Origin: Candidatus Iainarchaeum sp.
GTDB lineage: Archaea > Iainarchaeota > Iainarchaeia > Iainarchaeales > JAGVWC01
Assembly (NCBI GenBank): GCA_018304465.1
Contig: JAGVWC010000011.1
Coordinates: 32,001 to 96,000 of the forward strand
DNA: 64,000 bases
Direction: 5' to 3'
In this document: piece after piece, positions 10,073 to 29,967 of the stretch
How positions within the stretch are numbered: position 1 is the first letter of the stretch
How the letters are laid out: every line of letters starts with the position of its first letter
Notes under the pieces: generated by a model
Database searches by the model: none
What the model was told of the DNA's origin: nothing
What the model saw: only the letters and a program-made list of their open reading frames with translations
Program-made: the position numbers and the translations under genes

Positions 10073-10092
10073 TAATCTTTGAATGGGATGAC

Positions 10093-10836: not shown

Positions 10837-10866
10837 CACTAAAAAACGAACATTTCTAACATTTGA

Positions 10867-11565: not shown

Positions 11566-11577
11566 AAACCAAAAAAC

Positions 11578-12450
11578 TTATTCCAATTTGACTTTCCCCA
11601 AAAAACCCTTCGGCTTGTACAAGAGAATCAACAGCAAAATCAGCGCGTACAAAATCTGGCGCATCGGACCCACCACGGAGGATTCGAAACCGATGAATCG
11701 CAAGGGTTCCGGCAACAACACCAATACCACTGCGGCGGCGATCGTTCCCGGAATCGACGCCAACCCTCCGATGATCACGATCGCGATAATCGGAATCACA
11801 GCCAAAAGCGTAAACGACGACGGATCGATAAACGTAATGTAATGCGCGTACAAACTTCCAGCGATGCCCGCAAAAAACGCGCTCACGCCAAGCGACACCG
11901 ATTTCATTTTGAACGCGTTTTTTCCCAGCACCCGCGCCGCCAATTCGTTGTCGCGGATCGCACCCAAAACGCGTCCAAACGGCGAAGATGCCAACCGCCA
12001 GATAACAGCAACCGAAACAGCCGTGACGATCAGCGAAAAAACCAGAAACGAAAAATTATCCGACAACACGAACCCGAAGAACTCGGGGCGTGGAATCCCC
12101 GGAATCCCCAGCGGTCCCCTTGTAACATCGGTCCAATTCAAGGCCACGGCATACACGACAAACGAAAAACCCATGGTGGCCAAGGCCAAGTAATCGCCGG
12201 ACAACTTGTTCGTCGGAATCGACAAGACCAAGCCGAACAAACAACCGACCAGCCCCGCGGCCACAAGGCAGACCCAGTACGGAAAACCGGCCATTGCAAG
12301 CAACGCAGAAGTATACGCGCCCACCGCAAAAAACGCCACGTGACCCAGGTTAAGCAAGCCTGTAAAACCCATGGCCAACTGCAGGGAAACCGCCAAAATC
12401 ACGTAAATACAAATCAAAATCAACAGGTGAATCAGATATGCTTCGATCAT
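11578..12450 (-). CDS. livM: Branched-chain amino acid ABC permease
   Basis: GLLNLGHVAFFAVGAY, GDYLALAT, AIRDNELAA, IIGGLAS. Confidence 0.92.
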   Translation of the reverse strand: MIEAYLIHLLILICIYVILAVSLQLAMGFTGLLNLGHVAFFAVGAYTSALLAMAGFPYWVCLVAAGLVGCLFGLVLSIPTNKLSGDYLALATMGFSFVVYAVALNWTDVTRGPLGIPGIPRPEFFGFVLSDNFSFLVFSLIVTAVSVAVIWRLASSPFGRVLGAIRDNELAARVLGKNAFKMKSVSLGVSAFFAGIAGSLYAHYITFIDPSSFTLLAVIPIIAIVIIGGLASIPGTIAAAVVLVLLPEPLRFIGFESSVVGPMRQILYALILLLILLYKPKGFLGKVKLE

Positions 12451-13325
12451 TTCTGCAACTCCTTGTTGACGCCGAGGATTCCCTGCGGTCGAAACAATAA
12501 AAACGCGAACAGAATGACGAACGCGATCGCGTCTTTGTAACCCGACGGCAAATACCAGATTCCGAAATTCTCCGCGAATCCCAGCAAAAACGAACCCAGT
12601 ACCGATCCCGGAACCGAATTCACGCCGCCGATAATCGCACCCGTAAACCCCTTGATGATCAGGTTTGTTCCCATGGTTGGCTCGAGGTTTTGCTCAAGCC
12701 CCACCAGGATTCCGGCAACTCCCGCGATGGCGGACCCGATGGCAAAACTATAATCGAACATTTTTTGCGACGAAATCCCGACGACTTCCGCCATCTCGCG
12801 GTTATCCGACACCGCGCGCAACGCCTTGCCGGTTTTGGTGAATTTCATAAACCAAAACAGGCCCCCCAACAATACAAGCGATGTTACCACGATGACAATT
12901 TGAAGCGGCGTGATAATCGCTCCGGCAATTTCAAGGCCTTTTGAAACCGGAATAAAATCAATGGTCTTGACTTCCGCGCCGAATACCAACAAGAGAACGG
13001 ATTCAAATAGAATCAACAATGCAAAACTTCCCAACAGCAGGATTACCGAACTGGCTTTGCGATGGCGAAGCGGCGCATACACGAACCGGTTCAGCAAAAT
13101 GCCGAGCAACGCCGAAAAAGCCACCGTCAACAAGACGGAAAGAAAAAAATCAAGATGAAACGTTGAAAACAAAACGAATAAAAAATACGCCGACACCGCG
13201 ACGGTTCCGCCATGCGCAAAATGCACGAAGCGATTGGTGGAATAAATCAGCGAAAAACCGCTGGCGACCAAGGCGTAAATCGCGCCCGCGATCAAACCAT
13301 TCACCAGCAGTTGCGTGAAAACCAT
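12447..13325 (-). CDS. livH: Branched-chain amino acid ABC permease
   Basis: QLLVNGLIAGAIYALVASG, HFAHG, GKALRAVSDN, RPQGILG. ATGA overlap with livM. Confidence 0.92.
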   Translation of the reverse strand: MVFTQLLVNGLIAGAIYALVASGFSLIYSTNRFVHFAHGGTVAVSAYFLFVLFSTFHLDFFLSVLLTVAFSALLGILLNRFVYAPLRHRKASSVILLLGSFALLILFESVLLLVFGAEVKTIDFIPVSKGLEIAGAIITPLQIVIVVTSLVLLGGLFWFMKFTKTGKALRAVSDNREMAEVVGISSQKMFDYSFAIGSAIAGVAGILVGLEQNLEPTMGTNLIIKGFTGAIIGGVNSVPGSVLGSFLLGFAENFGIWYLPSGYKDAIAFVILFAFLLFRPQGILGVNKELQK

Positions 13326-13678: not shown

Positions 13679-15148
13679 TCACTTTTGGATCCGCGCCAAA
13701 CCATGATGCGCCCGCAAGTCGATTTTGTCGCCGTTTTGAATGATCTTGGTTCCCACTTTGGTGCCGACAATACACGGAATTCCAAGTTCCCGCGAAATAA
13801 TCGCGGCGTGACACGTGATCCCCCCGTCATCCGTAATGATTCCCACGGTTTTTTTTAGCATGGGAACGAATTCGGGAGACGTCATTCCCGTGACCAGAAT
13901 CTCGCCTGGTTGCAATTGTCCCAAATCCCGCGCGGATCGAATCACCCGTGCGATTCCGGAAACGGTTCCCGGTGATGCGCATAACCCCGCGACTTCGTTT
14001 TGCGTTACCACGCTTTTTTGCCACAATTTTTCCTCGGCCAAAACCGCTTCTTTTCCCGTCAGCACTTGAAACGGATAAACATTGTAATTTACAAAACAAT
14101 GTTCTCGACGCGCTTCTAATGTTTGTCGGGAAATTTTTCCTTGTGCAAAATCGGTCAATTCGAAAGAAAAAAGATATTTGGCCACATCCGAATCGATTCC
14201 GCGTCTACGCGCGAGTTCTTTAAGCAATCGTCCCACTGAAAAAAATCCTTTCATCTGGGTTTTTTTTCGATCGTCGTACAGGATCGAAACTTTTTTTGCC
14301 AACTCGAAAAAAAACAGGGCTTTGGAGGAAAAAAGGTATTTTGAAATCAACCGATTTTGTTCGGCTTGCGATTCTTTTTTTTGTTTTTCAATCGCACGAA
14401 GTCTTTCGGTCGGATTTTCTTTTGCATTCAAAGCGGATTCGATCAGTGATTCCAGATTATTCCAACCCAATCCCGAAAAAGAAAAGTAATTACAAGGCGT
14501 CCAATAAAATTTTTCGAGATGCGCTTCCATCAACGGTCTGATTTGCGCGTCTTTTCGCCAATTCTTATTTGGGGTTTGTCGATTCGCGATGACCGCGCTG
14601 ATTTGAAGAACGCTTTTTTCCGCCGCGCGGGAAAAAGAATCGTCTGTGGGCATGGAAAGCGCGGAAATAATCGTCGAAATTTCTTTCGATGGGATTTTTT
14701 GCGCGGAAAGATCCTCGGAGAGAAGTCCCGGAAGCGAAAAATCAATCAACTCGCCAAACGGTCCGAGATCCCACAACGGCTGGTAAACATTGAAAAATTT
14801 TCGGATTGATTCGATAATTTCTTGCGTTGAAAGAAGACCCACACGTTTTGGCAGCAGGGAATCGCAATAATCCTCGTTCAATTTGCAAATATATCGGAAT
14901 AATTCGAAAAGCGAATTCGCGTATTGCGGGTTTTTTTCCAGTCGATCCGCCAACATCCGTCCCGCCGCAATCAATTCATCCTCGTCAAACAGCCAACGGA
15001 TCTCGTCGTGACTGCACGCGAGTTTGTTCAAGCCATAGCCTTTCGGAACAAACCGCCTAAGTCCGTGATCCAGGTCGTCTCCGATGTTAAGGGTGGAATG
15101 AAACGCGAAAAACAAAGCGCCTTGGCGGCGCTGCTCGATCAAACGCAT
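13679..15148 (-). CDS. Phospho-His swivel (PEP-utilizers mobile) domain protein with large N-terminal helical domain, paralog P1
   Basis: C-terminal GLCASPG...MTSPEFVP...[33 protein letters not shown] and DDRKK motifs upstream. Confidence 0.88.
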   Translation of the reverse strand: MRLIEQRRQGALFFAFHSTLNIGDDLDHGLRRFVPKGYGLNKLACSHDEIRWLFDEDELIAAGRMLADRLEKNPQYANSLFELFRYICKLNEDYCDSLLPKRVGLLSTQEIIESIRKFFNVYQPLWDLGPFGELIDFSLPGLLSEDLSAQKIPSKEISTIISALSMPTDDSFSRAAEKSVLQISAVIANRQTPNKNWRKDAQIRPLMEAHLEKFYWTPCNYFSFSGLGWNNLESLIESALNAKENPTERLRAIEKQKKESQAEQNRLISKYLFSSKALFFFELAKKVSILYDDRKKTQMKGFFSVGRLLKELARRRGIDSDVAKYLFSFELTDFAQGKISRQTLEARREHCFVNYNVYPFQVLTGKEAVLAEEKLWQKSVVTQNEVAGLCASPGTVSGIARVIRSARDLGQLQPGEILVTGMTSPEFVPMLKKTVGIITDDGGITCHAAIISRELGIPCIVGTKVGTKIIQNGDKIDLRAHHGLARIQK

Positions 15149-15177
15149 AGGTAGTTATGTCGCATTAGTATTAAAAT

Positions 15178-15198
15178 ATTTTGCATTTACTGCAAAAT
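15178..15198. promoter_or_regulatory. Inverted repeat ATTTTGCA-N5-TGCAAAAT between divergent P1 and P2
   Basis: Perfect 8-bp arms flanked by AT-rich TATA-like sequences. Confidence 0.45.
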
Positions 15199-15350
15199 TT
15201 ATATTTGTTGATTGTGGGACTTTAAACGGCGAACAACGCCTTTTCGAGCATGGGAAGCGAATAGTCCCTCGAAAACGCCGGTTCCAGTCGAGGCATCAGT
15301 TTTCCCTTTTCTATTATAAGAAGAATCAGTATTAAAGCATTGGGAGCACG

Positions 15351-16391
15351 ATGCGATCCGAACAATGGATAAAATACTTGGCGGGAAACCAAAGCATGTT
15401 CCTTTGCACGTTACTTGGAAAAGTGTTCACGCAAACGCTCAAAACCGAATTCGGAGCCGGACCCAAACGAATCCGTTTTTTCTTTCACACAGGATTGACC
15501 ACGGGCTTTGTGGTCCAAAAAGAAATGATTTCATTCGGAAAACTCTTGTCCCGAAAAATCGAAAAAAATCCGCGCCAAATAACCCGATGGACGCGGCAAT
15601 TATCCCGACAAATCGATTTCTTGCGAAAACAACTGCTGTCATTCCACGGGAAAAGAATGACTAAGGCGGAATTTGAAAAAATTTGCCTTGAAACCGAACA
15701 ATTCTACGCGCATCTCGTGCCCGTGATGCAAGTCGCGGATTACTTGCCGTCATCCACCCTGAAAAAAATGCTTCCAAAACTCGAAAAAGCCCGAAAATAT
15801 TCGGAATCGGTTCAAAGCGAAATCGAAGGGTTTTTCGAGCACTGGGCTGAAAAAGAAAACAAATACAGTCACTTTCCCACGGCTTTTTTTTTGAGTCAAA
15901 CCGAAAAAGAACTCTTACAATATTTCAAAACTCATCGGTTTTTGTCCCGCTTGAAACTCGAACACCGGTGTTCTTGCAGCGCGCTGGATTTTTCCAACGG
16001 AAAATACGTATTGTTTCCCAAAACCTACGCCGAAAAACTCGAAGAAAAAACACGTTTATCTCGATCCGACTCGTTTGTCATCGGACAAACCGCTTACCCG
16101 GGAAAAGTCATCGGAACCTGCCGACGCGTACTCCATCCCGCGGACTCCACCCGCTTTGACGAAGGGGATATTTTGGTCACGCAAATGACCAAACCCGAAT
16201 ACTTGCCGATGATTCGAAAAGCAGGCGCGATCGTGACCGACGCCGGCGGATTATTGTCGCACGCCGGAATCATTTGCCGAGAACTCAAAAAACCATCCGT
16301 CATCGGAACCGACAAAGCCACCTTGGTGTTTAAAACCGGCGAAAAACTGCACGTGGACGCGACCAAAGGAATCGTTCGAAAAATTTTATGA
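15351..16391 (+). CDS. Phospho-His swivel domain protein, short type, paralog P2
   Basis: GQTAYPG...MTKPEYLP...TDAGGLLSHAGIICRELKKPSVIGT. Confidence 0.85.
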   Translation: MRSEQWIKYLAGNQSMFLCTLLGKVFTQTLKTEFGAGPKRIRFFFHTGLTTGFVVQKEMISFGKLLSRKIEKNPRQITRWTRQLSRQIDFLRKQLLSFHGKRMTKAEFEKICLETEQFYAHLVPVMQVADYLPSSTLKKMLPKLEKARKYSESVQSEIEGFFEHWAEKENKYSHFPTAFFLSQTEKELLQYFKTHRFLSRLKLEHRCSCSALDFSNGKYVLFPKTYAEKLEEKTRLSRSDSFVIGQTAYPGKVIGTCRRVLHPADSTRFDEGDILVTQMTKPEYLPMIRKAGAIVTDAGGLLSHAGIICRELKKPSVIGTDKATLVFKTGEKLHVDATKGIVRKIL

Positions 16392-17858
16392 AAAAATACG
16401 GACGATTCCGTGATTTGTACGAAGCTCGATGAGCGTACCGTCCTTAATCACTTGGGTTGCAATCCGAGTGCCGATAATGCACGGAATATTAAGCTCGCGG
16501 CTAATAATGGCCGCGTGACTCGTGATTCCTCCTTCGTTGGTCACTATTCCACGGGCTTTTTTCATTAATGGCACAAACTCTGGGCGCGTCATGCTTGTCA
16601 CTAATATTTCTCCTTCATTGAAAGGGTCCGATGGTTTTTTGACGACCCGGGCAATTCCTTTGGCTTCACCGGCGCAAGCAGTAATACCTTGCAGAGACTG
16701 AATGTTTTCCAAATTAGCTTTGGGCATTAGACGTTCCCGCAATTGCTCGTAGACGCTTCCGCTCAGGGTCCAGAATCGTTGGTCCTTATTGCCAATCTGA
16801 ACGCAACCTTTCATGCGCTGACGCCATTCTTCGATTGGAACACTTTTGCCGTCCAGCAGGTCTAATAGTTCGGAAGGAGTTGTGAATTGCAGGATCTCAA
16901 ATTTAATACCTGTTTTTTCACTCGTTTTATGCAAGAAGAGATTGAGATAATGGCACGCGATAAGTGTCGCACGTTTGCGTTGATCATGCCAATATCCGAT
17001 CAATGAAATCCAATGGAGAAGCTTTTGAGAATCTGGATCGAGTTTTAAATTCAGTTCCTCGCGTTTTTGCTTAAGCATTTTTTCCTGATGCAAAAGAGCA
17101 AAAATTTCTTTTTCTATTTCTTCGATTGTTCGTTTAGATTCGATTCGGGCATTTTCGAAAAAAACGGTTAATTGAATCGGTTCGGTATATTTGTAATTGT
17201 TTTGAATCCAAAAAAAATTCTTTTGATGCTCAACTACTAAACGGTAAATTGAGGGATTTTCTTTCTGCAGCTCTTGAAGCGTTTTGGGATTACTGCTCTT
17301 AAGCTGCCGAGCGATCAGTAACAGGCTCAATTTTTCTTCGCCCAAAAACGTCCCGTACATGGGTGCCATGGCTTCTCGAATTTGTGTCTGTAGTAAAGGG
17401 TATTTTTCGAGCAAAAGTGAAACCATATATTCTGTGCCGGTATAGAAATATTCGACCAATAATGAGGGGGTGAACAGCGACAGGTATACATCCGTGAATT
17501 CTTCATAGTCTTTTTTCAGGTCCGTTATTGCACGCGAAGAAAAACTGTTCACATACGCATAATATTCTTTTTGGCGTTTTTGCCACAAAGCATACATGCG
17601 CTCCAGAATTGAATAATCCGCCAAAATGCGCTTGTATTGCCTTTCGGCAAAATGCTCCGGCAGTATCCAGTCGCTCTCGTCCCCATTTTTCGAGTAAAAT
17701 GTTGTATATATTTCAAATCCAAATCCAGGACAAATCTTCTCGAGTTCGAAACTGGCTCCTGCAATCGAAAAATAGTTCAGATGTGGCACAATTGTGGCTG
17801 AATACACGCCCCACTTCTCTGAAGGTGAGATTAATTCCCAAAATGAATCATCAGTCAA
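16386..17858 (-). CDS. Phospho-His swivel domain protein, paralog P3
   Basis: [43 protein letters not shown] start 10 nt after the ATP-grasp gene stop. Confidence 0.88.
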   Translation of the reverse strand: MTDDSFWELISPSEKWGVYSATIVPHLNYFSIAGASFELEKICPGFGFEIYTTFYSKNGDESDWILPEHFAERQYKRILADYSILERMYALWQKRQKEYYAYVNSFSSRAITDLKKDYEEFTDVYLSLFTPSLLVEYFYTGTEYMVSLLLEKYPLLQTQIREAMAPMYGTFLGEEKLSLLLIARQLKSSNPKTLQELQKENPSIYRLVVEHQKNFFWIQNNYKYTEPIQLTVFFENARIESKRTIEEIEKEIFALLHQEKMLKQKREELNLKLDPDSQKLLHWISLIGYWHDQRKRATLIACHYLNLFLHKTSEKTGIKFEILQFTTPSELLDLLDGKSVPIEEWRQRMKGCVQIGNKDQRFWTLSGSVYEQLRERLMPKANLENIQSLQGITACAGEAKGIARVVKKPSDPFNEGEILVTSMTRPEFVPLMKKARGIVTNEGGITSHAAIISRELNIPCIIGTRIATQVIKDGTLIELRTNHGIVRIFS

Positions 17859-17868
17859 GGAATCCCCG

Positions 17869-18819
17869 TCATTTCAAAGTCGTAATCGGCCGCGCCTGCA
17901 AAATATACACTTTATCATCAATGGCCCATTCGATATCCATGGGCTGACCGTAATGCGATTCGATATTCAAGGCTTCCTTGGCCAGCGCTTTCCACTCCGA
18001 ATCCGACAACGCCGCGGAATTCGCTTCTTCTTCCCCGATCTCGATTTCCTTGTTTTGCCCGAATTCGTCCCGAATAATCGCGATTCGCTTTCCACCGATA
18101 GTATGCGATACCACGGACAAATCTTTTTTCTTTAGAATCAAGGTATCCGGGGTTACCATTCCGGAAACAACGCTTTCACCCAAACCAAACGCGGCTTCGA
18201 TAATCATTTCGTCGCGCGCGTTCGTCACCGGATTCGCAGTGAATAAGACGCCCGCTTTTTTGGAATTCACCATTTCCTGGATTACGACCGAAATCAACAC
18301 CATTTCGTGCTTGAAACCTTTGGATTCGCGGTAAAAAATCGCGCGCGGAGAATACAACGACGCCCAGCACTTCTTGACCGCTTCCAAAATGCCGTCATCG
18401 CCTTTCACGTTCAAAAAAGTGGCTTGCTGTCCGGCAAAACTCGCGTCCGGCAAGTCTTCCGCCGTCGCGCTGGATCGCACCGCAACGAATCCTTTTCCAA
18501 GTTTTTTGTAATCCGCCAAAATGTCATCGCAAATTGATTGGGGGATTTGCGCGTTTAGGATCAGCAATTCGATCTGGTTGGCGGTTTTTTCCAACTGCTC
18601 GGAATCATCCACGTTCGTCTTGTTCAGCAAATCATGAATTTTCTTATGAATCTTGTTTTCATCCACGAACTGCTTAAAGACGTGAATCGTAATGCAAAAA
18701 CCATTCGGAATCGGAAACTTCGAAAACATTTCCCCCAGGTTTGCGCCTTTTCCGCCAACCAACGGAATATCTTTTTTTTTGATTTCCGAAAACCACGCGA
18801 TGTTTTTTTCTAAAGGCAT
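17869..18819 (-). CDS. Stand-alone PEP synthase/dikinase N-terminal ATP-grasp (PPDK_N) domain
   Basis: VGGKGANLGEM, VAVRSSATAEDLPDASFAGQQATFLNV, GLGESVVSG, DIEWA, ends ILQARPITTLK* with no swivel or pyruvate domain. Start ATG 18819 or 18828, TTTAAAT about 25 nt upstream. Confidence 0.92.
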   Translation of the reverse strand: MPLEKNIAWFSEIKKKDIPLVGGKGANLGEMFSKFPIPNGFCITIHVFKQFVDENKIHKKIHDLLNKTNVDDSEQLEKTANQIELLILNAQIPQSICDDILADYKKLGKGFVAVRSSATAEDLPDASFAGQQATFLNVKGDDGILEAVKKCWASLYSPRAIFYRESKGFKHEMVLISVVIQEMVNSKKAGVLFTANPVTNARDEMIIEAAFGLGESVVSGMVTPDTLILKKKDLSVVSHTIGGKRIAIIRDEFGQNKEIEIGEEEANSAALSDSEWKALAKEALNIESHYGQPMDIEWAIDDKVYILQARPITTLK

Positions 18820-18937
18820 ATGATTCATATCATCCTTTTCCCATTTAAATAGTAACGAAAAACGGTTTCGGCCGTTATGAAGCGGGATACCTTTAAATAT
18901 CAAAAAGTAAGTAGGTCTTCATTGGAGGCATTTTTTC

Positions 18938-19834
18938 ATGGCACCACGACCATTGCTTGGAAGATTCGGAAAAAAACCCGGGAAAACAGGTTCGCCGAAA
19001 ACACCTGAACAGTCCAGTCAATCCGGTGTTGCAGCAAAATATGTTGGAAAGATTCCTGTCGGAACCGTTCGAAGCTATTTGGGCCGGCATCAAATAAAAC
19101 AAAAAGGCACTCCAACAGGTTTATCTCCCGAAGGAGAAGGCCGTGCAAGTGAAGCGCTTTTGCCTGGATTAAAAAGCGGACGCCAATATCGGGTCACTAC
19201 TTCCACGAATGATCGCGCCTTCCATACCGGTCGATTGGGTGCGGAAGCGTACCGACGCCTCGGGGGACGCGCCAACACCGGGGCCGTGCTAAATGACCGT
19301 CGAGTGGCAAAACGCGTCGATCACATCGTCAAAGGCAAGCCAACGCGTGGACGCGTCCTTAAATCCATGAGCGCGGATCATGTTTTACCCGAACCTCAAC
19401 TCACGGAATACATGAACATCATCGAAGAACTGAAAGCTCAAGACAAACGACTAAATGACACCACTGCCGAGGAAAAACTCCTCGTAGATTGGGCTATGCA
19501 TGGAAAATACGCGCGTCGCATCGGAGATCCGATCAAAATCACTGATAATATCATCCTGGATACATTGCAGCTGGGAAAAGAAGTCAGCAAGCGCGGCGGG
19601 CAAAACATCGAACTGCGAAACGTGTCTCACAGCGGTTTCGTTGAAATGGTTTTCATGCGTTTAACCGGACGAGATTACCGTGAAACCGGAAAAGGCATGG
19701 TTGAACCCGGAGAAGGACTTCTCGTTCATTTTCTTCCCGAAGGAAAAGCCGTGCTTGAATATCGCGACAAACAATTCGACGTAACCAAAAAATTAAACCA
19801 GATCATTAAGAGCGCCCGCAGCAAGTATCGCTAA
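18938..19834 (+). CDS. Divergent histidine phosphatase (phosphoglycerate mutase-like) fold protein with basic N-terminal extension
   Basis: YLGRHQ (RHG-like), LSPEGEGRA, TSTNDRAFHTG and VSHSG motifs in canonical order. Confidence 0.62.
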   Translation: MAPRPLLGRFGKKPGKTGSPKTPEQSSQSGVAAKYVGKIPVGTVRSYLGRHQIKQKGTPTGLSPEGEGRASEALLPGLKSGRQYRVTTSTNDRAFHTGRLGAEAYRRLGGRANTGAVLNDRRVAKRVDHIVKGKPTRGRVLKSMSADHVLPEPQLTEYMNIIEELKAQDKRLNDTTAEEKLLVDWAMHGKYARRIGDPIKITDNIILDTLQLGKEVSKRGGQNIELRNVSHSGFVEMVFMRLTGRDYRETGKGMVEPGEGLLVHFLPEGKAVLEYRDKQFDVTKKLNQIIKSARSKYR

Positions 19835-19860
19835 CGGCACTCCTTTTTTTTTATTTTTTA

Positions 19861-20271
19861 TTAATTATTGTCCCTACTCCGTAACTCATATATTTTTTGG
19901 AGAATATTATCCAAATGCTCATGCACCAATGTCTGATCTCGCACAATCGCTTTTACACTTTCCGGAACTACAAATCCTTTTCGAACATCGCTTCGCAATG
20001 CCTTTTGGAACGCAAGGGTCATGTCTTCTATTCGACTACGGGCATTTTCTAGATATCGAATAGCAGGATCTTTTTTTTTCCACTCTGTCGGAATCGATGA
20101 AGAATGAAGACGCCGGAGAATCTCAGCCTCAATAACACGCATATTCCGTTGGATTTCTTGCATTGGATAATCTCGTTCGACCGCGCTATGAACCCGCGTC
20201 ATAATTTCTCTTCGCCTGTCAGCTACCTTTTCACGCAACTGAGGTCGACGCATCGGTTTTCTGGACTTCAT
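19861..20271 (-). CDS. Hypothetical basic helical protein
   Basis: 136-aa ORF with ATG start, K/R-rich N-terminus, fills the gap between genes. Confidence 0.6.
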   Translation of the reverse strand: MKSRKPMRRPQLREKVADRRREIMTRVHSAVERDYPMQEIQRNMRVIEAEILRRLHSSSIPTEWKKKDPAIRYLENARSRIEDMTLAFQKALRSDVRKGFVVPESVKAIVRDQTLVHEHLDNILQKIYELRSRDNN

Positions 20272-20324
20272 TTAACCACCGGTGTATTTTAGGTTTATAA
20301 TCTTACTTGTCTCCAACAACACCT

Positions 20325-21740
20325 TTATTTCTTTTCGATGACTGTTATAGAACCGTGATTCGCTTTTACTTGAACGATCCAACCATCTTTAAGCACCCGC
20401 GTCGCGTTTTTGGTGCCGATCACGCACGGAATTCCCAATTCGCGGGAAATGATTGCCGCGTGACTCGTAATTCCCCCTTCATCGGTTACAATCGCAATCG
20501 CTTTTTTCATCGCCGGAACAAATTCTGGTCTTGTCATGCTGGTCACCAAAACCTCGCCTTCTTTTAATTCCGCGATGGAATCCAGCGTCCGAAGAATCCG
20601 AACGGGCCCCGTGGCGATTCCCAAGGAAGCGCAGGTTCCGTTTAATACCTCCACTTCGTCCAAACGGGTTTTAAACCGTTGTTGATACTCCAAAAAATCC
20701 GAATGATCAAAAATCATTACGCCTTGGGAATGCTCGATTCCGATGAACCCTTTTTTTCGCCTTTGGCCCAAGGATTCGAGTTCACGGTTTTTCAATCCTT
20801 TTAGCGAAACTTCTTCGCCGGTCAGATACTGGATAGCCACCGGATCGACTCCAAACCGCCTCGCCAATTCGTTGACGATCAACTGGCAACCAAACACCCC
20901 GCGAAAAATGTTTTTCTTTCGCTCGTCCTGCCATTGCGTGACAAAATCCGTCCATTCCACCCATTGACGCTGCGCATCGGAAAAGCCGTACCGAGCCATT
21001 AACGCCTCTTTTTTGTGCCGAATCTCTGAAAGATCCGGTTTTGAAAACGATTCAAGCCCATCCGCCATTTTTTCCACATCGGACTCGGACAAAACCTCGC
21101 TTCCCGCATACGAGGTTTCCGACCAAAAAAAATCCTTCAAAAACCGCTGAATCAACGCTTTTTTTTCCTTGGCGCCTGCGTTTTTGATTTGCCAGAGCAA
21201 TTCTTCTTTTTGAGATACAAAGGAGTGCGACAAGGGTGTTGTGAGAGCGGAAAAATCCTCATTTGACTGTGTGCCGGTGACGCCCTTGAAGAGTTCGTGG
21301 CGCATTCGATGCTCTAACGCCAAGGCCAGACTTTCGATCACATGCGATGATCCGACGGTTACTCCGCGGCTAACCCAATGACGCTTGGAAAGATCTATCA
21401 ACGCGTCATCAGGTAATTTGGTCAAATCGCTTTCCGCCGCCGCAAAAACGGGTTCTTGATCCGCGACTTGCCGGTCGTAAACGCGCCGAAGCGCCTGCAA
21501 ATACGATGGGTCCTTTTTCAATTCGGAAAAAATCCGATTCGCAATCGCATCCAAATCTTTTTGCGGGTACTTCCATTCACAATAATCCTCTTCATACGTG
21601 GCCAAAATCGCATGGTAGGAATACCCCATGGTTTTTTGCATGACCGGCAATCCACCCACCCCAATCATGAAAATCGGGCGTCCCGGACAGCTTTGGGTAT
21701 ACCATTCTTGGGACAAATATTTTTTCAGTACCGGGTTCAT
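20325..21740 (-). CDS. Phospho-His swivel domain protein, paralog P4
   Basis: [40 protein letters not shown]. Confidence 0.88.
   Translation of the reverse strand: MNPVLKKYLSQEWYTQSCPGRPIFMIGVGGLPVMQKTMGYSYHAILATYEEDYCEWKYPQKDLDAIANRIFSELKKDPSYLQALRRVYDRQVADQEPVFAAAESDLTKLPDDALIDLSKRHWVSRGVTVGSSHVIESLALALEHRMRHELFKGVTGTQSNEDFSALTTPLSHSFVSQKEELLWQIKNAGAKEKKALIQRFLKDFFWSETSYAGSEVLSESDVEKMADGLESFSKPDLSEIRHKKEALMARYGFSDAQRQWVEWTDFVTQWQDERKKNIFRGVFGCQLIVNELARRFGVDPVAIQYLTGEEVSLKGLKNRELESLGQRRKKGFIGIEHSQGVMIFDHSDFLEYQQRFKTRLDEVEVLNGTCASLGIATGPVRILRTLDSIAELKEGEVLVTSMTRPEFVPAMKKAIAIVTDEGGITSHAAIISRELGIPCVIGTKNATRVLKDGWIVQVKANHGSITVIEKK
20353..20393. repeat. 41-bp exact direct repeat, copy 1 (copy 2 at 21964-22004)
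   Basis: CCGTGATTCGCTTTTACTTGAACGATCCAACCATCTTTAAG is identical in the 3' ends of P4 and P5. Confidence 0.9.
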
Positions 21741-21920
21741 ACAAATTCCCTTTTCTCGATCACGTTGGAGTTATTTTCGTCGGCGATCATGGCTACGACT
21801 TTTCTCTGAATCCGATATTCTGCCATGAGAGATACCTGTCTTTCCCGCTGCATATAACGTCATACGAGTTACCCTTCGGTCTTTTCGGTTCTGATTCTGC
21901 CAAAGGTTGAACGAGGTCGT

Positions 21921-23360
21921 CTAGGCATTGAATTTACCCCTTTTCTCCAATACCACGATTTGTCCGTGATTCGCTTTTACTTGAACGATCCAACCATCTT
22001 TAAGAACTTTAGTAGCGCTCTTGGTCCCGATCACACAAGGTATTCCGAGTTCTCTTGAAACAATGGCCGCATGGCTTGTGATCCCGCCTTCGTCAGTGAC
22101 GATCGCAACGGCTTTTCGCATCGCAGGAACGAATTCCGGTCGCGTCATCGATGTAACCAATACTTCGCCGTCTTTCATCGAACCAATCGACGACACCGTG
22201 GTGAGTACCCGAACCGGTCCTGTCGCAGTTCCCAAAGACGCGCATTGCCCATAAAGCGTTTCCAGATCATCATGCTTGGAATGAAATTGCTGGTCAAAAA
22301 ACTCGGCATCGGCTTGGTCCAGGAACGTCGTTTGGTTGCCCAGTTTCACATAAAGACATTTTTTTTGGCGTTTTTTTGATTTTTTCTGAAGAGAACCGTT
22401 TCGAATCGATTGAAGAGAAATTTCCCAGGGCAACACGTAATCCAGATCTCTTTTCGGAATCGAATACCTGCGTGCCAACTCGTCTTGGAATTTGGCAAGC
22501 AAGCACACACCTCTTAAAATTTCCCGTTTTCGCTGATCCTGCCAATCCGTCAAAAAATCAATCCATTCGACGATATTTCGTTGCTTAACCGAAAAATCCA
22601 GTTTCGTCATGACCTTGGTTTTTTCGGTTTGAATTTTTTTCGCATCCGGTGTTTTTACTTCGGGAATTTTTTCGGCGGTGGACAAAATCTCTTCTTTGGT
22701 CCATTGTTTGGGACCCGCGTATCCTCCGTCCGCCCAGAAAAACGTCTTCAGAAACCGGTCTACCCGCTCCGAACGCTTTTTTCCCTTGGAGATCCGAATG
22801 TCAAACAACGCTTGGTCTCGCAGCAAGGCAAAAGAAGGTTTGGTGGGGGTTGTCAGATTCACAAAATAAAGATTCACGTTTTCCGGAACGGTTTTTTCTT
22901 TGATGCCGTGTCGCAAATCGCGCTCAAGACGGATTGAGATGCTCTCGATTAAATGCGCAATTCCGATCACGGCATTGATATGGCGGCCCACGAACTCCAA
23001 CCGATCGAATAATTCTTCTTCGGAAAATTTTGACAAGTCTTTTTCAAGCAGGCCATTCGAAAAAAACCATCTCACTTCGGCAGCCCATTTTTTTCTTTGT
23101 TTTTCCAGGTATTTCGGATCCTTTGTCAGTTCTTTTTCGATCCGATCGGAATTGCGCTCGAGGTCAGCTAATCCATAATTGGCTTCCACGTAATCAATTT
23201 TGAAAAAAAAGAAGAAATCGGTATAGGTGAACCCCAGACCGTTTTTCATGTGATCGAACGGCTCTTCAATGTATCCGAACGGAACGATGAAAAACGGTTT
23301 TCCTGGAGTGGCCCCGGTGTACCACTTACGTGCCAGCATGCGATTAATGATTGGATTCAA
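21921..23360 (-). CDS. Phospho-His swivel domain protein, paralog P5
   Basis: [43 protein letters not shown] start at 23360 (MNPIINRML, compare P4 MNPVLKKYL) overlaps the P6 stop. Confidence 0.87.
21964..22004. repeat. 41-bp exact direct repeat, copy 2
   Basis: Identical to 20353-20393. Confidence 0.9.
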
Positions 23361-24832
23361 CGATCGTCCCCCACCTTGCGGATAATTCCGTGATTCGCGT
23401 TCACTTCGATCAAATCGCCCGTCTGAATCGCCTTGGTGGCGTTTCCCGTGCCGATAACACACGGTTTTCCGAGTTCTCGCGAAATAATCGCGGCGTGACA
23501 CGTGATCCCTCCCAGTTCGGTAACGATCGCGCCCGCTTTTTTCATCGCGGGAACAAATTCAACCGAAGTCATCGTCGTGATCAATACTTCGCCGGCTTTG
23601 AAAAGAGAAATTTCCCTCGAATTTAAGAGCACCCGCGCGCGACCAACAAAAATCCCCGGTGACGCCGCGGTTCCTTTCATCACCTGATGCTCAAAATCTG
23701 TTTTTTTCGATATTTTTTTTTCAAGATCCGCGATTTCGCTTTCCGAAAGAAAACGATACGCTCCGTTTTCCACAATAAACGCGCTTTTTTCGATTCGCTT
23801 GGACAACTCCGCGGCTTTCGGCCCGTCTCCGCGAATAATGTTTTGCAGTTCCGAAACCGTCGCGTAATGCAGTTCCCGTTCAGAAATGTTTCGCCGCTTT
23901 CCGATTTCTTCAAGCAAACGGCCAAATCCGACATTCGCGATCGAAATCCGCTCTTTTTTCAAGTCGCCATACAAAAAAGCGATTTGCCGGATATTTTCAA
24001 AAAGAATCTCCAATTCAAGCGGAAGATTCGTCCGATTTTGGATTTCGCGCAGCCGTTTCGACGCGTTTTCCTCCAGATGCTCAAAGTCAAAAATCCGTTT
24101 TTTTCGCTCCGAAACCGGAATCGCCTGCAAGCAGTCCAATTCTTCGTGCACCATTTTTTCGTCCAGAATGGGGCCGTAGTAATCATAGGTTAGAAAATAA
24201 AACCGTTTGGCGTGAAGCCGAATCGCTTCTTTTTTTCGATCCTCTTCTTTGATCAACGAAATCGCCAAAAGGCTTTCTTCGGCGCGCGCGACAAAACTTT
24301 TATGAACCGGGTTGGCCAAGACCGAAAAAATTTCCGCGATTTCCGATTTCTTGAAATTCTTGTTTTCTTTGGCCAAAAAAACGGCTAAACGGTCCTGTAC
24401 CAACTGGTGTCCGCGAATCTCCAGCGAAAAATTCGCGGGTTCCGTCCAATACTCGGACTCGATGTAAATCCGAACTGCTTCGTTGAAAAGCGTTTCCAAA
24501 TCCGCGTCCGAAAAATTTTCCAAGCGTTCATTCAATACCGCGGGATCGATCAGTTCCAGCAATTGTTTTGCGTTTCGTAAAAAGTTGTTGCGCAACGGCT
24601 CAATGATTCCTCTTTGATGGGACAATCGCTCGACAACTGCGTTGGCCACGGTTTCCATTTGGTCCGGCAGCCAATACCACGTGCTCTGCCCGTTTTCAAT
24701 CAAACAAAAAAAACCCGAAAACGCCATGGGGACGCCAAGCGAACGATCCATCGTCTGGTTGTAGGATGACGCCATGACTCCCGTTGGAAAAGGCGGCGCG
24801 GAACTCGAATACACTTTGACAAGATTCTCCAT
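23357..24832 (-). CDS. Phospho-His swivel domain protein, paralog P6
   Basis: GTAASPG...MTSVEFVP...[33 protein letters not shown]. Confidence 0.88.
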
Positions 24833-24834
24833 GA

Positions 24835-26292
24835 CTAGTTCGCCTTAACCTTGCGCACGTACCCGTGATTCGCGTTGACCTCAACCAAGTCCCCGTCTTG
24901 AAAAGTTTTGGTCGCGACTTGCGTTCCGATGATGCATGGAATTCCCAGTTCGCGGCTTACGATCGCGGCGTGGCTGGTGATGCCGCCTTCGTCGGTCACG
25001 ATTGCGGAGGCTTTTTTCATCAAGGGGACGAATTCGGGTCTTGTCATTCCCGTCATCAAAACGTCGCCTTCGCGAAACTTCGAAAACGCGTTGATGTTAA
25101 GAATAATCTTCGCGGGTCCCGTTGCTTTTCCAAGCGACGCCACGGCGCCATACACGGTTTCTTGCCCCGAAAACGACCGCTCGATCCGATCGAACAATTC
25201 GGCGGCTTGGTTGGTTTCCACCAAATAATCGCCGGGTTGATCGAGCTCGATCAGCCAAACGCCTTGTTTCACCCGCATTTTCAAGGTCTCCAAAAGGTTT
25301 GGATCGCCTTCGACAAAGGCTTTGTATTCCAAAAAAGGAATCACGAAATCGCTTTCAAACATCGGGATGCCTTTTTTTTCGGCAATGCCGTGAAAAAAAC
25401 CAATGACCCCCCAATTGGCGATGTTGGTGAATTTTTTGCGAACATCGCGAAAAAACGCCAGGTCCGCGAATTGCTGAATCCGCGCACGCGTTTGTTCGTC
25501 AAAACCGTATTTTTCAATAATCTTTTTTTTCTTGTCTTTCAATTCTTTCCAAAACGCGTTTTGGTGTTTTTCGGATAGCCGGGCAAAGAAAAAATCTTCT
25601 CCAAGCACCGTTGCGGTCTGGTAATTGTTTTCGATCCACCAGAAATTTTTCTGATGCGCCGAAAGCATTTCCGAAACTGCGTCCGAAAGTTGCTTTCCGT
25701 CTTTTTCAAATTGCTGCTGGATTTTTTCAAACGATTTTTGTTCTTCCCACAAAAAAGTCGTGTCCGGCAACAGCAAGGTCTGCAGATCCGCCGCGCTCAC
25801 TTCGGACAACCGATTTCCGAAGATGTACTTTAGAATTTCTTTTTCGAACGGATCGAACAAATCAATGAAAAGCGAACACGCCCAGCGTTTGAATTCCTGA
25901 TCGAGAAATTTTCCGAATTCGTCCACGCATTTTTGCTGGGTTTTTTCGGAAAAATTCTTTCCAAGTTCAGCGACTCCAAAAGACCGTTCTTCCAGTCCTT
26001 TCCCAAACCCGTTGTGACGCTTGAGTTGTTGTTTTACCCACGAAGGGTTTTTGGTCATTTTTTCCAGCAACTGCAGTACCAGTCGCTTGCCATGGTCAAT
26101 GGGCCAATACATGAACGCGGATTGGATCGGGCTTACGTATACCGCTGTGTTAAGCAGCCAGATTCCGTCCGAAAGATCCGAATACCTAGGCAAAGACAAG
26201 GTGGCTGCCGGCAGCATGATCGTAATGGTCAACGAAGGCGCGCTTTGCTTGTAGTAGGAACGGCGGGCGATTTTCTCCAATTCAGGATTCAT
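24835..26292 (-). CDS. Phospho-His swivel domain protein, paralog P7
   Basis: [43 protein letters not shown] 26292 (MNPELEK) matches the P4/P5 N-termini. Confidence 0.88.
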   Translation of the reverse strand: MNPELEKIARRSYYKQSAPSLTITIMLPAATLSLPRYSDLSDGIWLLNTAVYVSPIQSAFMYWPIDHGKRLVLQLLEKMTKNPSWVKQQLKRHNGFGKGLEERSFGVAELGKNFSEKTQQKCVDEFGKFLDQEFKRWACSLFIDLFDPFEKEILKYIFGNRLSEVSAADLQTLLLPDTTFLWEEQKSFEKIQQQFEKDGKQLSDAVSEMLSAHQKNFWWIENNYQTATVLGEDFFFARLSEKHQNAFWKELKDKKKKIIEKYGFDEQTRARIQQFADLAFFRDVRKKFTNIANWGVIGFFHGIAEKKGIPMFESDFVIPFLEYKAFVEGDPNLLETLKMRVKQGVWLIELDQPGDYLVETNQAAELFDRIERSFSGQETVYGAVASLGKATGPAKIILNINAFSKFREGDVLMTGMTRPEFVPLMKKASAIVTDEGGITSHAAIVSRELGIPCIIGTQVATKTFQDGDLVEVNANHGYVRKVKAN

Positions 26293-26323
26293 TTGGTTCA
26301 CTATCAAGCAATCCGTTTTGAAT

Positions 26324-26983
26324 TTATATTTCTATTTCCTGCCCCGGTTTTAAGGGTTTGCATGCGATTCCCAATTTTTCAAGCCGGGATTTGAAATCGT
26401 TTTCGTCCGCATTAATCATCGGAAACGTATTGAAATGAATCGGAATCACGAGTTTTGGAGAAAGCGCTTGGGCCGCATGAACGGCTTCTTCGATTCCCAT
26501 GGTGAAACGATCGCCGATCGGCAAAAAAGCGACATCGATCGAAAAACGCTCGCCGAGATTTTTCATTCCGGAAAAAAACGAGGTGTCGCCGGCGTGATAC
26601 ACGGTTTTCCCGTTTTTTCGCAGGATGAAACCCGACGGATTGCTCGACGCCGAGTGAAAGGCCTTGGTCATGAAAATCGACCAGTCTTTGACCGAAATCT
26701 GGCCGCCCACGTTCATCATCTCGACTTTGGTTCCTTTGGCGGCGTATTGTACCGCCAGCTCAAAACCCGTAACAACCGTTGCGTCGTTTTCTTTCGCGAG
26801 CGCTTCCGCGCCCAAATGATGATCGAGGTGATCATGGCTGATGCAAATCAGGTTTGTTTTGCGGTCCGCAGCAGTGAAGACATGCGAATTCTTAAGTCCC
26901 ATTCCCGGCATTTCGTCGGTCCACGGATCCACGATCAAATCGTCTATTTTGACACTGGCGTGGCCCAGATATTTGAGTAACAC
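26324..26983 (-). CDS. UPF0173-like metallo-beta-lactamase fold hydrolase
   Basis: YLGHAS, VDPW, SHDHLDHH, YHAGDT, LPIGDRFTMG, IPIHFNTF. GTG start with GGGGGA upstream. Confidence 0.88.
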   Translation of the reverse strand: MLLKYLGHASVKIDDLIVDPWTDEMPGMGLKNSHVFTAADRKTNLICISHDHLDHHLGAEALAKENDATVVTGFELAVQYAAKGTKVEMMNVGGQISVKDWSIFMTKAFHSASSNPSGFILRKNGKTVYHAGDTSFFSGMKNLGERFSIDVAFLPIGDRFTMGIEEAVHAAQALSPKLVIPIHFNTFPMINADENDFKSRLEKLGIACKPLKPGQEIEI

Positions 26984-27099: not shown

Positions 27100-29967
27100 T
27101 CACTTATTATGTATATAATCCATCGTCGCCCGATATTTTGGCGCGTCCGAAATCGGCTGATCCTGATATTCCAACAGGCCCCAAGAACCATATTTGGTTG
27201 GGAAATAAACGTTCTCAAACATCACCATCAAGCCACCGCCATTCGCAAACCACACACTAAAATATTCCTGGTATTGCGTATACATTCTCGCGTCCTCGTT
27301 GGCGGCAATCAGTTTGTCAGTCAGAGTCTGGTTGTTGAGGTAAGTAAAATTGGCCGGGACCAAACTCTGGCCGCCTTGATCAGCAATTAAAGCCAGATTA
27401 TATCTGTCAGCGACCTGCTTATTGGCGATGATCCACGACGTAACCTCCCCAGTAATTGAAGCTTCGGCGCGGTCTAATATTTCAGGGACCGTAATGGTCG
27501 AAATTTCGTTGTTTTTGCCAATTTGATCAGCCACGGCTGCGCCAAAATAAGGCGCGATCGATAAAGCGTCGGCCGAAATATTGTATGGATTAATCGTCGG
27601 ATTATAAAATGATTTAAGAATAAATGTGGCCACGTAACTATTTCCGGCTTGGCTCGCCAACACCTTGACGAGCCGAGAGTCACCGCCAAATTCGTCCTCG
27701 AATATTTTAAATATCTCGGCTGACCGCTTCGCTTGGTAAACCAGTCCCGACGCCCAGATATCGCCAGCATCACTAACACCGTCGGTGCAATTATTATCCA
27801 GATGTAAGGAACAGCCCATTCGATCAACGTAAGCAGTCTGGTAGAAAACCGTATTCCATAATTCCGTCGAATATTCGATGTATATTTTTCGATCGGGGTT
27901 TAGCTGTTCATGAATCATGTTGGCTAAATTTTTCACATAATTGTCATCGGCCATCGCGGGAATGTTTACCCACATGTCGGCATTAAGCAAGTTGGAAATA
28001 CTAATCAGGTCTTCCATCGCCGCTCCGGTCGACATTTTTATGGTAAAGTCTCCATTCGAGGCTTCGTTAAACGAAGTCTCACTATACAACGGAGGACGAA
28101 CCAAATTATTATAGTCAAAATTAAACGTATAATCGTCAATCACTTGAACCATCAGATTCGAAAGGTTAAAAGACTTAGCAATCGTCTCCCCCGAAGCGTC
28201 CTTCAAAGTCGTGGAAGCATCAGATCCAGAAATCGTAACGAGTTGTCCCGTAATCAGATGGTGCGGCGAAAGCGTTTTCACCTGCGCGGTATAATTCGAG
28301 GCAAAAAAAGATTTATCTAGAACCTTTTTTATCGAACTGATTGGACCGGTTCGAATAATCAGTTTATTTTGCGTATAATACCCTGGTTTTGTCCGGTCTT
28401 CCCAACGAGCCATGTTGGTATTAACGGTCAACATCGCGTCCACATATCGAATAACCGAAAATCCGTTCAATCGTTGCAAGAAAGTCGGATAGAACACATT
28501 TTGACTGTAATTATTTTCAAATCCTGGCAGAATCATCCGAATATTTCGCACATGATTTGCAGGATTTGACCGAGTAATCTGTAGGTGGATTCCTCCGTTC
28601 GTCGGAGTAACGTTGAGAAGAATTTTCCCCGGCGTTGATGAAATTACTTCGGTATCGCCAATAAACTTCAAGTCCCCGTCTCCATCATAAAAAACCGTAT
28701 AGGTGCCGGCAGGATATTTTCCTTTGATTGAATCAAAAAGCAAAGTCTCGACAACCGTCGGATACGCCTCACCTGGAACTTGATACGGCAGTTCCAAAGG
28801 ATACCCCGCCTCATCCGAAGGCAGTTCCGCTTCCAGACCGGTATCCCAAATGGTCCAATCGATCAGGCGGGTTTGGGTATTCCATTTTCGGGTAATCCAT
28901 GGTCTAGTCAACTTGAAAACGTTCGTATAGGGTATTTGTCCATCATAATCATTAAACCACGCCAGATTATTTCCGATTAATTTGTTGTTACCTATACAAC
29001 CTAAACTGTTCAAGTCTTGACAATTTGCTTGGCAGGTTAATGTTCCTCCTGTATACCCTTTGGTTTGGCAGGTTTGCCCGTTCAAATCGGTTTTGTCACA
29101 AACTTCGGACCCTTCGCGCAAACCATTCCCGCAAGTTTGAGTCAAAGTGGATCCACAAGCAGAAAAGTTGAAATCCGTACAATTAGAAAGGCAAAAAAGA
29201 ACTCCAGATGAAAACCCCTTGGAAATACACGTTTGATTATTCAAGTCCGATCCGTCGCAGGTTTCGGTTCCTTCTCGTAGATTGTTGCCGCAGGTTTGAA
29301 CCAAAGTTACTGGACAAACACCACAATCGGTTGGACAACTGGAACAAGTTTCGGTCGCGTTACAGGAACCGTCGCCGCAAACCTGAGTCGAAGAGTCGGG
29401 GGGTAATGGGTCTTGGCCGTCATCCGATCCATCGCCGCTTTCGAACGTACAATCGTTTGGGCAGTTAAACGGCGTTTCCCGCAAATCGCAATTTCCGTTG
29501 TTATTGCATACCCCCGCACAATCGCTTGGACACGATGAAACGGTTTCGCCGATGAGAACATTGCAAAAACCATCTGTCACACATCGGCCGGTTGAAGCCG
29601 GACAATCCTTTTTACACGAAACCGAATTCTCGCCGATGTCGGGTTCACAAGAACCGTTTTCATTGCACGCAAAACAATCCACCAAACACGTATTCGCGGA
29701 TTCGCCGGGTTCACACACTTTGTTTCCGCAACGCGGAATAGAAAAATTTGTTCCCGGATTCGACGTAACGACATTCGAAATTCGGTCCGCAATCTTATTG
29801 ATATCTCCCGCATTATCCATTGCCGACCCGACGCGATCCGGTCCGACCAACGGCGAAACAAAAACCAAGAAAAAAATACTCGAACCAAGCCCTACAAAAA
29901 CAATGAATGTAAGTATTTGGTTCAAAGACAATTTTGTAAGTGCCGGAAAAAGACTTCCAAACCCCAT
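27100..29967 (-). CDS. Membrane-anchored surface protein: Cys-rich repeats plus clan-A glycoside hydrolase-like TIM barrel
   Basis: N-terminal TM, CGNxxCExGE..CxxDC and CGNxxREGxExCDxxDLNxQTC repeats, then ADMWVNIP...IYIEYSTELWN...ADQGGQ...KYGSWGLLE. Confidence 0.75.
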   Translation of the reverse strand: MGFGSLFPALTKLSLNQILTFIVFVGLGSSIFFLVFVSPLVGPDRVGSAMDNAGDINKIADRISNVVTSNPGTNFSIPRCGNKVCEPGESANTCLVDCFACNENGSCEPDIGENSVSCKKDCPASTGRCVTDGFCNVLIGETVSSCPSDCAGVCNNNGNCDLRETPFNCPNDCTFESGDGSDDGQDPLPPDSSTQVCGDGSCNATETCSSCPTDCGVCPVTLVQTCGNNLREGTETCDGSDLNNQTCISKGFSSGVLFCLSNCTDFNFSACGSTLTQTCGNGLREGSEVCDKTDLNGQTCQTKGYTGGTLTCQANCQDLNSLGCIGNNKLIGNNLAWFNDYDGQIPYTNVFKLTRPWITRKWNTQTRLIDWTIWDTGLEAELPSDEAGYPLELPYQVPGEAYPTVVETLLFDSIKGKYPAGTYTVFYDGDGDLKFIGDTEVISSTPGKILLNVTPTNGGIHLQITRSNPANHVRNIRMILPGFENNYSQNVFYPTFLQRLNGFSVIRYVDAMLTVNTNMARWEDRTKPGYYTQNKLIIRTGPISSIKKVLDKSFFASNYTAQVKTLSPHHLITGQLVTISGSDASTTLKDASGETIAKSFNLSNLMVQVIDDYTFNFDYNNLVRPPLYSETSFNEASNGDFTIKMSTGAAMEDLISISNLLNADMWVNIPAMADDNYVKNLANMIHEQLNPDRKIYIEYSTELWNTVFYQTAYVDRMGCSLHLDNNCTDGVSDAGDIWASGLVYQAKRSAEIFKIFEDEFGGDSRLVKVLASQAGNSYVATFILKSFYNPTINPYNISADALSIAPYFGAAVADQIGKNNEISTITVPEILDRAEASITGEVTSWIIANKQVADRYNLALIADQGGQSLVPANFTYLNNQTLTDKLIAANEDARMYTQYQEYFSVWFANGGGLMVMFENVYFPTKYGSWGLLEYQDQPISDAPKYRATMDYIHNK

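Follow-up and report, generated by a model that had tools for sequence, protein, structure and literature searches.

Two-component dikinases that phosphorylate small molecules are represented by HpeHI of Rhodococcus, CreHI of Corynebacterium and the phenylphosphate synthase PpsAB of Thauera (PMC12167813). In the account given there, HpeI adopts the ATP-grasp fold of rifampin phosphotransferase (RPH), HpeH combines the acceptor domain of RPH with its swivel, activity depends on His581, the HpeH/HpeI complex is only transient and, as in the known pathways generally, the phosphorylated product is later dephosphorylated. As portrayed in the same source, these systems are 1:1 gene pairs that act on phenolics and belong to catabolic operons of large-genome bacteria. 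RPH itself is a single chain of 867 amino acids (aa) with one specificity, in which Lys22, Arg117 and Thr136 were found by mutagenesis to position ATP and the Arg666-Glu667...Lys670 site is described as required for the second phosphotransfer (PMC4844700). Here we report a locus of Candidatus Iainarchaeum sp., an archaeon represented by a 1.25-Mb assembly (15 contigs, 92% complete), in which the chain is likewise split and the acceptor half is multiplied: in a stretch of 64,000 nt (contig JAGVWC010000011.1, 32,001-96,000; hereafter the window, whose positions are used as locus coordinates), one gene for a stand-alone ATP-grasp subunit, AG, lies among seven genes for acceptor-swivel modules, P1 to P7. 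We regard it as probable that the locus encodes a split, multiplexed dikinase of the RPH/PpsAB type, in which one AG charges many modules with separate acceptors. A preliminary description of the window had stated that no characterised system with a one-to-many layout was known. In line with this, no description of a one-to-many dikinase array was found in the full-text literature outside subscription journals and supplements, although the split as such is known already in its 1:1 form (PpsAB, CreHI and HpeHI; PMC12167813), and the new part is the one-to-many ratio. A DPANN metagenome paper names such genes 'phenylphosphate synthase' and remarks on the missing carboxylase (PMC8091004).

From the list of open reading frames (ORFs) and their translations, twelve plausible genes were recognized at 13679-26983. 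As the preliminary description had claimed, seven of them end in a His swivel: PF00391 was matched at the C-terminus of P1 to P7 (E 7e-22 to 4e-25), and the catalytic His is intact throughout (GGIT[SC]HAAI in six translations, GGLLSHAGI in P2). Long-class modules, which consist of an RPH-type helical acceptor domain followed by the swivel, are encoded on the minus strand by P1 (13679-15148, 489 aa; PF00391 E 7e-22 at 413-483; N-domain profile E 2e-28), P3 (16386-17858, 490 aa; PF00391 E 2.7e-24; N-domain profile E 5e-19), P4 (20325-21740, 471 aa; PF00391 E 4.9e-25), P5 (21921-23339, 472 aa, the length of the form on record by exact look-up), P6 (23357-24832, 491 aa; PF00391 E 3.2e-23; N-domain profile E 1e-29) and P7 (24835-26307, 490 aa as an ORF; PF00391 E 4.4e-25), for which a start at Met6 (26292) seems likelier. 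P2 (15351-16391, plus strand, 346 aa; PF00391 E 2.8e-21) belongs to a short class, in which the swivel (GGLLSH) follows an acceptor domain of 235 aa that, judged from its structural model, is a trimmed version of the RPH-type domain. Homologues numbered 406 for P2 and 4351, among 8000 candidates scored, for P4. The ATP-grasp gene had been described as ending right after this domain, and indeed the only Pfam match of the ORF at 17869-18903 (minus strand) is PF01326 (E 9e-111, covering 2-312 of the 328 profile positions), its last residues being ...QARPITTLK; the 319-aa form (17869-18828) is the one on record by exact look-up. The pyruvate-binding barrel (PF02896), reported earlier as lacking, has no match in the window.

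Pairwise identity among the P proteins is 19-31% in the N-domains and 42-82% in the swivels, with P5 as the nearest paralogue of P4 (31% and 82%, respectively). The N-domains had been called highly divergent, which is borne out by these identities, but they are still homologous: a profile built from P4 relatives alone detects P1, P3, P5, P6, P7 and Q1, a dispersed gene described below, at E 1e-14 to 1e-130, and P2 falls into the second, shorter class together with the dispersed Q3 and Q4. AlphaFold (AF2) models were obtained for P4 (59-row alignment, pLDDT 93.6, pTM 0.90) and P2 (60-row alignment, pLDDT 93.9, pTM 0.90). In Foldseek comparisons with the PDB, the top six matches of each model were all Listeria rifampin phosphotransferase (RPH-Lm; E 1e-14 to 2.5e-11), which, in its entries 5fbs, 5fbt, 5fbu and 5hv1, is the best structural match of the predicted acceptor and swivel domains of both module classes. 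The P4 model superposed on RPH-Lm 316-867 with 400 of 471 residues aligned (Z 19.5, root-mean-square deviation 5.2 Å) and the P2 model on RPH-Lm 319-867 with 297 of 346 residues aligned (Z 19.9, 4.5 Å), in agreement with the earlier proposal of an RPH-like substrate domain joined to a swivel. Because matches to the swivel only reach a similar Z with just ~105 residues aligned, it is the aligned length, not Z, that marks the N-domain as a match of the rifampin-binding domain. Neither the Pfam scan nor the P4 and P2 models contained a nucleotide-binding family or fold of the N-domains' own.

At the level of sequence the relationship to RPH is distant. The P modules are 14-20% identical to RPH, and the sequence and profile of P4, when compared with the PDB, reach RPH only from ~60 residues before the swivel, the N-domain match having needed the fold comparison. 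The P proteins reach no NCBIfam cut-off and match the RPH and PEP (phosphoenolpyruvate) synthase models in the swivel region only, with at most 87 bits against 999 for RPH (NF041857) and 100-139 against 598 for PEP synthase (NF005057). Similarly, the PpsA-like PRK08296 models of 568-633 positions gave 85-101 bits at the swivel end only, against a cut-off of 578; the P proteins, with 346-491 aa, are shorter than such PpsA-like models of ~600 aa. Their swivels keep the Thr of PEP synthases two residues before the His, whereas HpeH, CreH, PpsA and RPH have Met according to the comparison in PMC12167813; the PEP synthase regulatory kinase (PF03618), a candidate user of the retained Thr, has no match in the genome. 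Eight N-domain positions are invariant in the seven long-class paralogues, including D272 and K275 (P4 numbering), and R274 is present in six of the seven. Ten single-chain, barrel-less relatives from public genomes share an R-E-x-x-K motif with the spacing of RPH Arg666-Glu667...Lys670, and in a weak hhalign alignment (E 0.4) of the N-domains with these relatives the Glu and the Lys of the motif fall opposite D272 and K275, respectively, with the Arg shifted to +2, a register consistent with the NCBIfam offsets. This alignment is suggestive of D272...K275 being an equivalent of the RPH phosphotransfer site.

AG keeps the ATP-positioning residues of RPH, as Lys22, Arg117 and Thr136 of RPH-Lm correspond in the HMMER alignment to its K27, R118 and T137, and it matches the 9goj chain (387 aa; E 7e-57) cited in the HpeHI paper (PMC12167813). 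Its NCBIfam scores all lie under the cut-offs (398 against 598 for PEP synthase NF005057, 301 against 999 for RPH NF041857 and 229 against 1700 for NF000283), so that, as with the P proteins, the RPH cut-offs are far from reached. Stand-alone AG proteins of 311-316 aa form a conserved family with 50-58% identity across DPANN lineages. A complex prediction for AG and P4 returned an ipSAE of 0.00 in both runs, which had no controls, and nothing is drawn from it. The locus thus resembles PpsAB, CreHI and HpeHI in having a separate PPDK_N subunit with neither swivel nor barrel, and a second, likewise barrel-less subunit in which a substrate domain of the RPH type is joined to a swivel with its His at the C-terminal end. 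In sequence, AG and the P swivels are nearest to the ATP-grasp and swivel domains of PEP synthase, from which the system differs in having an RPH-type helical domain in place of the PEP/pyruvate barrel.

The 14 PF00391 matches of the genome are accounted for by P1 to P7, PEP synthase, PPDK and five dispersed genes, Q1 to Q5, all outside the window. Q1, a long-class gene of 522 aa, Q3, a short-class gene of 373 aa, and Q5, with 484 aa and a different N-domain, lie on other contigs; Q2 (G000:C13:80318-80647) codes for a swivel domain only (109 aa) and has a NUDIX gene ~2 kb away; and Q4 (G000:C15:181645-182703; 352 aa, short class) is decayed, its catalytic His region having been lost via an internal deletion and a frameshift, with the swivel end still readable in another frame. 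Frames of 109-123 aa resembling Q2 were also seen in three relatives (G012, G014 and G026). PPDK_N was found in three ORFs of the genome, namely PEP synthase (805 aa, contig C8), PPDK (881 aa, contig C5) and AG, and the only two PF02896 matches are inside the same full-length PEP synthase and PPDK. The stand-alone pyruvate barrel that, according to the preliminary description, might have explained AG as part of a split PEP synthase is therefore absent from the 92%-complete genome. One stand-alone ATP-grasp protein is thus set against seven swivel proteins in the cluster and twelve in the genome (eleven of them intact), in contrast to the 1:1 pairs of the phenolic-degrading bacteria, and it is found in an archaeon of 1.25 Mb with no aromatic pathway in view. 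The system occupies ~16 kb, or 1.3% of the genome.

To place this ratio in context, a profile of six window N-domains without their swivels was run against 121 genomes that had been drawn from the phylum and belong to the same order, and an AG profile was searched in the 27 other genomes with a match; a dedicated AG was defined as an ATP-grasp outside PEP synthase and PPDK. These genomes are interrelated, so the counts are descriptive rather than a test. The N-domain was present in 28 of the 121 genomes, this one counted. Among the ten genomes with at least three N-domain matches, nine had a dedicated AG, the exception being G126 (86% complete, 160 contigs), and each of the nine had a single AG apart from G119, where two partial AG frames were seen. 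Both genomes with two matches had a dedicated AG, in each case fused, and six of the 16 genomes with one match had one (G037 being ambiguous). Natural fusions join one AG to two to four modules in at least four relatives: AG-(N-SW)x3 in G067 (1839 aa), followed by two further modules, AG-(N-SW)x4 in G051 (2388 aa), followed by three, (N-SW)-AG-(N-SW)x2 in G075 (1994 aa), and AG-(N-SW)x2 in G002 (1312 aa), which is of the same family as the source genome and has a P7 orthologue (44% identity) immediately before the fusion gene (N, N-domain; SW, swivel). Moreover, co-directional operons of five modules (G123) and of four to five modules (G036) close with one AG. The census, with nine of ten genomes rich in modules, and the fusions support the sharing of one AG by many modules, which we still infer.

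Clustered at 50% identity, the N-domain family comprises ~3,700 clusters in public data, and of the 150 best N-domain matches in the wider library 17 are proteins of 900-2309 aa with two to four copies of the domain. A fusion of a module to a UDP-GlcNAc 2-epimerase (PF02350), considered for homologue P0044, was rejected, as the rescanned match was below the cut-off and overlapped the swivel domain. The AG profile, searched against contigs of public genomes (at least 80 loci), gave among the matches listed 56 ordinary PEP synthases, 14 barrel-less AG...SW chains, two single-chain AG-N-SW proteins and eight AG-only ORFs; the module family was found at two of these eight, L093, a Buchananbacteria record with five modules and AG, and L101. 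In three relatives (G034:C11, G072:C28 and G111:C56) the ATP-grasp profile is matched in two stretches (3-125/130 and 124-315) that lie ~1.5 kb apart in frames of 1301-1393 aa, with only the second stretch among the matches listed for G111:C56; the pattern resembles an insertion, perhaps an intein, within a PEP synthase-like gene.

A quick maximum-likelihood tree was computed from 41 long-class proteins, leaving out P2, Q2 to Q5 and, from relatives, seven ORFs that were partial or N-domain-negative. Except for P4 and P5, which share one clade, the paralogues of the source genome do not cluster together. P1, P4, P5 and P7 are each joined to a protein from an archaeal genome other than this one, and the partner of Q1 comes from a Buchananbacteria record of the candidate phyla radiation (CPR), all these pairs having SH-aLRT support of 99-100; the named homologues carry DPANN and CPR labels. 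By this phylogeny the modules are old, separately conserved lineages; each therefore most likely has its own acceptor, and the pattern fits distinct and stable specificities.

In the mechanism that we propose, a P protein would use its swivel His to attack the beta-phosphate of the ATP bound by AG, with release of AMP and then of inorganic phosphate (Pi); the swivel would swing back to its own helical N-domain and hand the phosphoryl group to the ligand of that domain. ATP would thus be converted to AMP and Pi via a phospho-His as in PpsAB, CreHI and HpeHI, here by homology. One AG would charge all seven clustered modules and probably also the four intact ones elsewhere in the genome. The acceptor of each module is probably a small-molecule hydroxyl, and the phosphate may serve only for a time, as a handle by which a compound is trapped, activated or salvaged, and be taken off afterwards, as suggested by the phosphatase-type genes nearby. 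In the bacterial phosphotransferase system (PTS), Enzyme I and HPr feed many sugar-specific Enzymes II. The logic proposed here would be analogous, with one general energy-coupling protein serving many specificity proteins via phospho-His, and Enzyme I has the same swivel fold; the two differ in that the donor here would be ATP rather than PEP, the swivel is on the specific subunits, and no HPr or membrane component was seen.

Several observations weigh against this shared dikinase. By strand and spacing there are at least four transcription units, MBL-P7-P6-P5-P4-X136, X298, AG-P3, P2 and P1, the last possibly running into ABC permease genes (MBL, metallo-beta-lactamase-fold gene; X136 and X298 are described below). 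The cluster genes thus lie on both strands, and P3, whose start is 10 bp from the end of AG, is the sole module within the AG transcription unit. The P swivels are 42-58% identical to the swivel of the genome's own PEP synthase, with AG showing 41% identity to that enzyme's ATP-grasp domain. In ten of the 16 genomes with a single module, five of which were rechecked with the AG profile, ATP-grasp domains occur only in PEP synthase or PPDK, or not at all; modules can thus occur where no dedicated AG is encoded, and the dependence of modules on one is not universal. HpeH alone can, as described in PMC12167813, shuttle phosphate between substrates. The active-site equivalence in the N-domains depends on a weak profile alignment. 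Finally, conventional sugar kinases (two PfkB and one ROK) are kept in the genome. The modules are therefore not simply replacing lost kinases, an idea that was considered and is not supported, even though ADP-PFK/GK and FGGY had no match in the 92%-complete genome. The oxidative pentose-phosphate branch is kept as well, a glucose-6-phosphate dehydrogenase gene and a 6-phosphogluconate dehydrogenase-like gene flanking a putative cyclase gene at 36223-39247 (plus strand) of the window.

AG might instead work with P3 only, as PpsB does with PpsA, while the other modules would take their phosphate from full-length PEP synthase or PPDK, through its ATP-grasp or PEP domain, or would act as ATP-free shuttles that move phosphate from phosphorylated donors to acceptors. 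The co-directional P3, the single-module genomes with no dedicated AG, the likeness of swivels and AG to PEP synthase including the retained Thr, and the shuttling by HpeH all fit such a pair with orphans, and from the sequence similarity cross-charging by PEP synthase of at least some modules is a live rival. As a general explanation we nevertheless consider it unlikely, given that a dedicated AG, nearly always a single one, accompanies the modules in nine of the ten genomes that have three or more, that one AG is covalently fused to several modules in at least four relatives, and that operons of five P genes and one AG exist.

The neighbouring genes may be relevant to the fate of the phosphate. 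X298 (18938-19834, plus strand), located between AG and P4, has no Pfam match of its own and is a candidate accessory phosphatase with a divergent histidine-phosphatase fold: its protein-atlas feature score was 0.93, with 173 features in common with CPR clusters of which 29-30% carry PF00300, its structure gave TM values of 0.61-0.65 to His_Phos_1 families, and a homologue (E 6e-15; 40% identity over 98 aa) that adjoins the P1 orthologue in relative G001 (52% identity to P1) matches PF00300 with 24.3 bits (cut-off 21.7). HAD phosphatase genes are directly beside AG or a module in four of nine other loci scanned (G036, G123, G034 and G011, the last also with an HD-domain gene), and no flanking phosphatase was found in two CPR loci and three others of the nine. 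The presence of phosphatases of differing folds at the same place would, by analogy with the Hpe pathway, in which the product is dephosphorylated, suggest a phosphorylate-then-dephosphorylate logic. The extent of 13679-26983 given in the preliminary description holds the array, but its end takes in the gene of an MBL-fold metal-dependent hydrolase (26324-26983, minus strand; NF001911 208.7 bits, cut-off 144), the first gene of the P7-P4 unit. Its position next to P genes is conserved within this family of genomes, with homologues so placed in G003 (E 9e-94) and in G001 (E 7e-81), and its link to the kinase system is uncertain. X136 (19861-20271, minus strand, 136 aa), a called gene on record that closes the MBL-P7-P6-P5-P4 unit, falls outside known families, with no match in Pfam and family scans and no homologue in the loci fetched from relatives. 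Two Liv-type ABC permease genes lie immediately downstream of P1 and share its strand, but a conserved transporter link was rejected, as the P1 orthologue in G001, the one relative examined, has no adjoining transporter. The Liv-type ABC uptake system at 308-13325 includes five paralogous genes for Peripla_BP_6 binding proteins, of which four each adjoin a TrmB-family regulator gene, together with two ATPase genes, two permease genes and an M55 D-aminopeptidase gene. On the other side of the array, a gene at 27100-29967 (minus strand) codes for a protein of 955 aa that has a membrane segment at its N-terminus as well as long Cys-rich repeats and belongs to no Pfam or NCBIfam family; phmmer found ten further related ORFs in the same genome. 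An Rfam scan of the window gave no match.

The array might also be a resistance battery, with RPH-like modules that each inactivate one antibiotic or toxin of a host or competitor. RPH is the nearest solved structure, the decayed Q4 adjoins an ABC-2 exporter pair and a MarR regulator, and a CPR genome survey, in its tally, counts rph-like genes as resistance genes (PMC8651080). We regard this as improbable, because the P proteins remain at 87 bits or less against the RPH cut-off of 999 and at 14-20% identity to RPH, adjacent phosphatases would reverse an inactivation, and paralogues that are old and conserved across DPANN and CPR fit housekeeping better than an arms race.

Alternatively, the N-domains could be ligand sensors of a phospho-His signalling relay, with the swivel passing its phosphate to protein partners instead of the ligand. 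Such a role is hinted at by the swivel-only Q2 and by the TrmB regulators that flank Q1 and the array of G011, and some members may have a tie to gene regulation, since a 590-aa homologue of P4, P0052, carries an N-terminal winged-helix (HVO_A0114/ArsR-like) domain ahead of the module. A relay appears very improbable: Pfam showed neither an HPr-like nor a receiver partner in the cluster, the N-domains have an invariant acidic and basic pair where, in the weak alignment, RPH holds the transferred phosphate, and the characterised relatives, as far as they are treated in PMC12167813 and PMC4844700, all phosphorylate small molecules. That AG represents the N-terminal portion of a PEP synthase that was split or broken, with the P genes as unrelated leftovers, can practically be dismissed, as its best NCBIfam match is indeed PEP synthase but at 398 bits stays under the cut-off of 598, intact PEP synthase and PPDK are encoded elsewhere with no stand-alone barrel in the 92%-complete genome, and AG on its own is conserved across DPANN lineages.

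If one ATP-grasp subunit charges many modules, the shared dikinase proposed here would be the first one-to-many dikinase and would also constitute a natural toolkit of swappable phosphorylation specificities. Tentatively, and with considerable doubt, it may be an instance of a general modular phosphorylation platform of DPANN and CPR organisms, in which a single charger would supply as many as a dozen exchangeable acceptor modules, or even more, every one of them an old orthologous group with a metabolite of its own, and which, with partner phosphatases of the histidine-phosphatase or HAD type, captures, activates or recycles host-derived compounds. Ultra-small archaea and bacteria have shed most of their metabolism, yet 1.3% of this genome goes to one enzyme system; if the platform exists, it would make up a major uncharted share of the metabolism of ultra-small cells. 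The system is readily testable with purified proteins, and its substrates would reveal what ultra-small organisms take from their surroundings or hosts.

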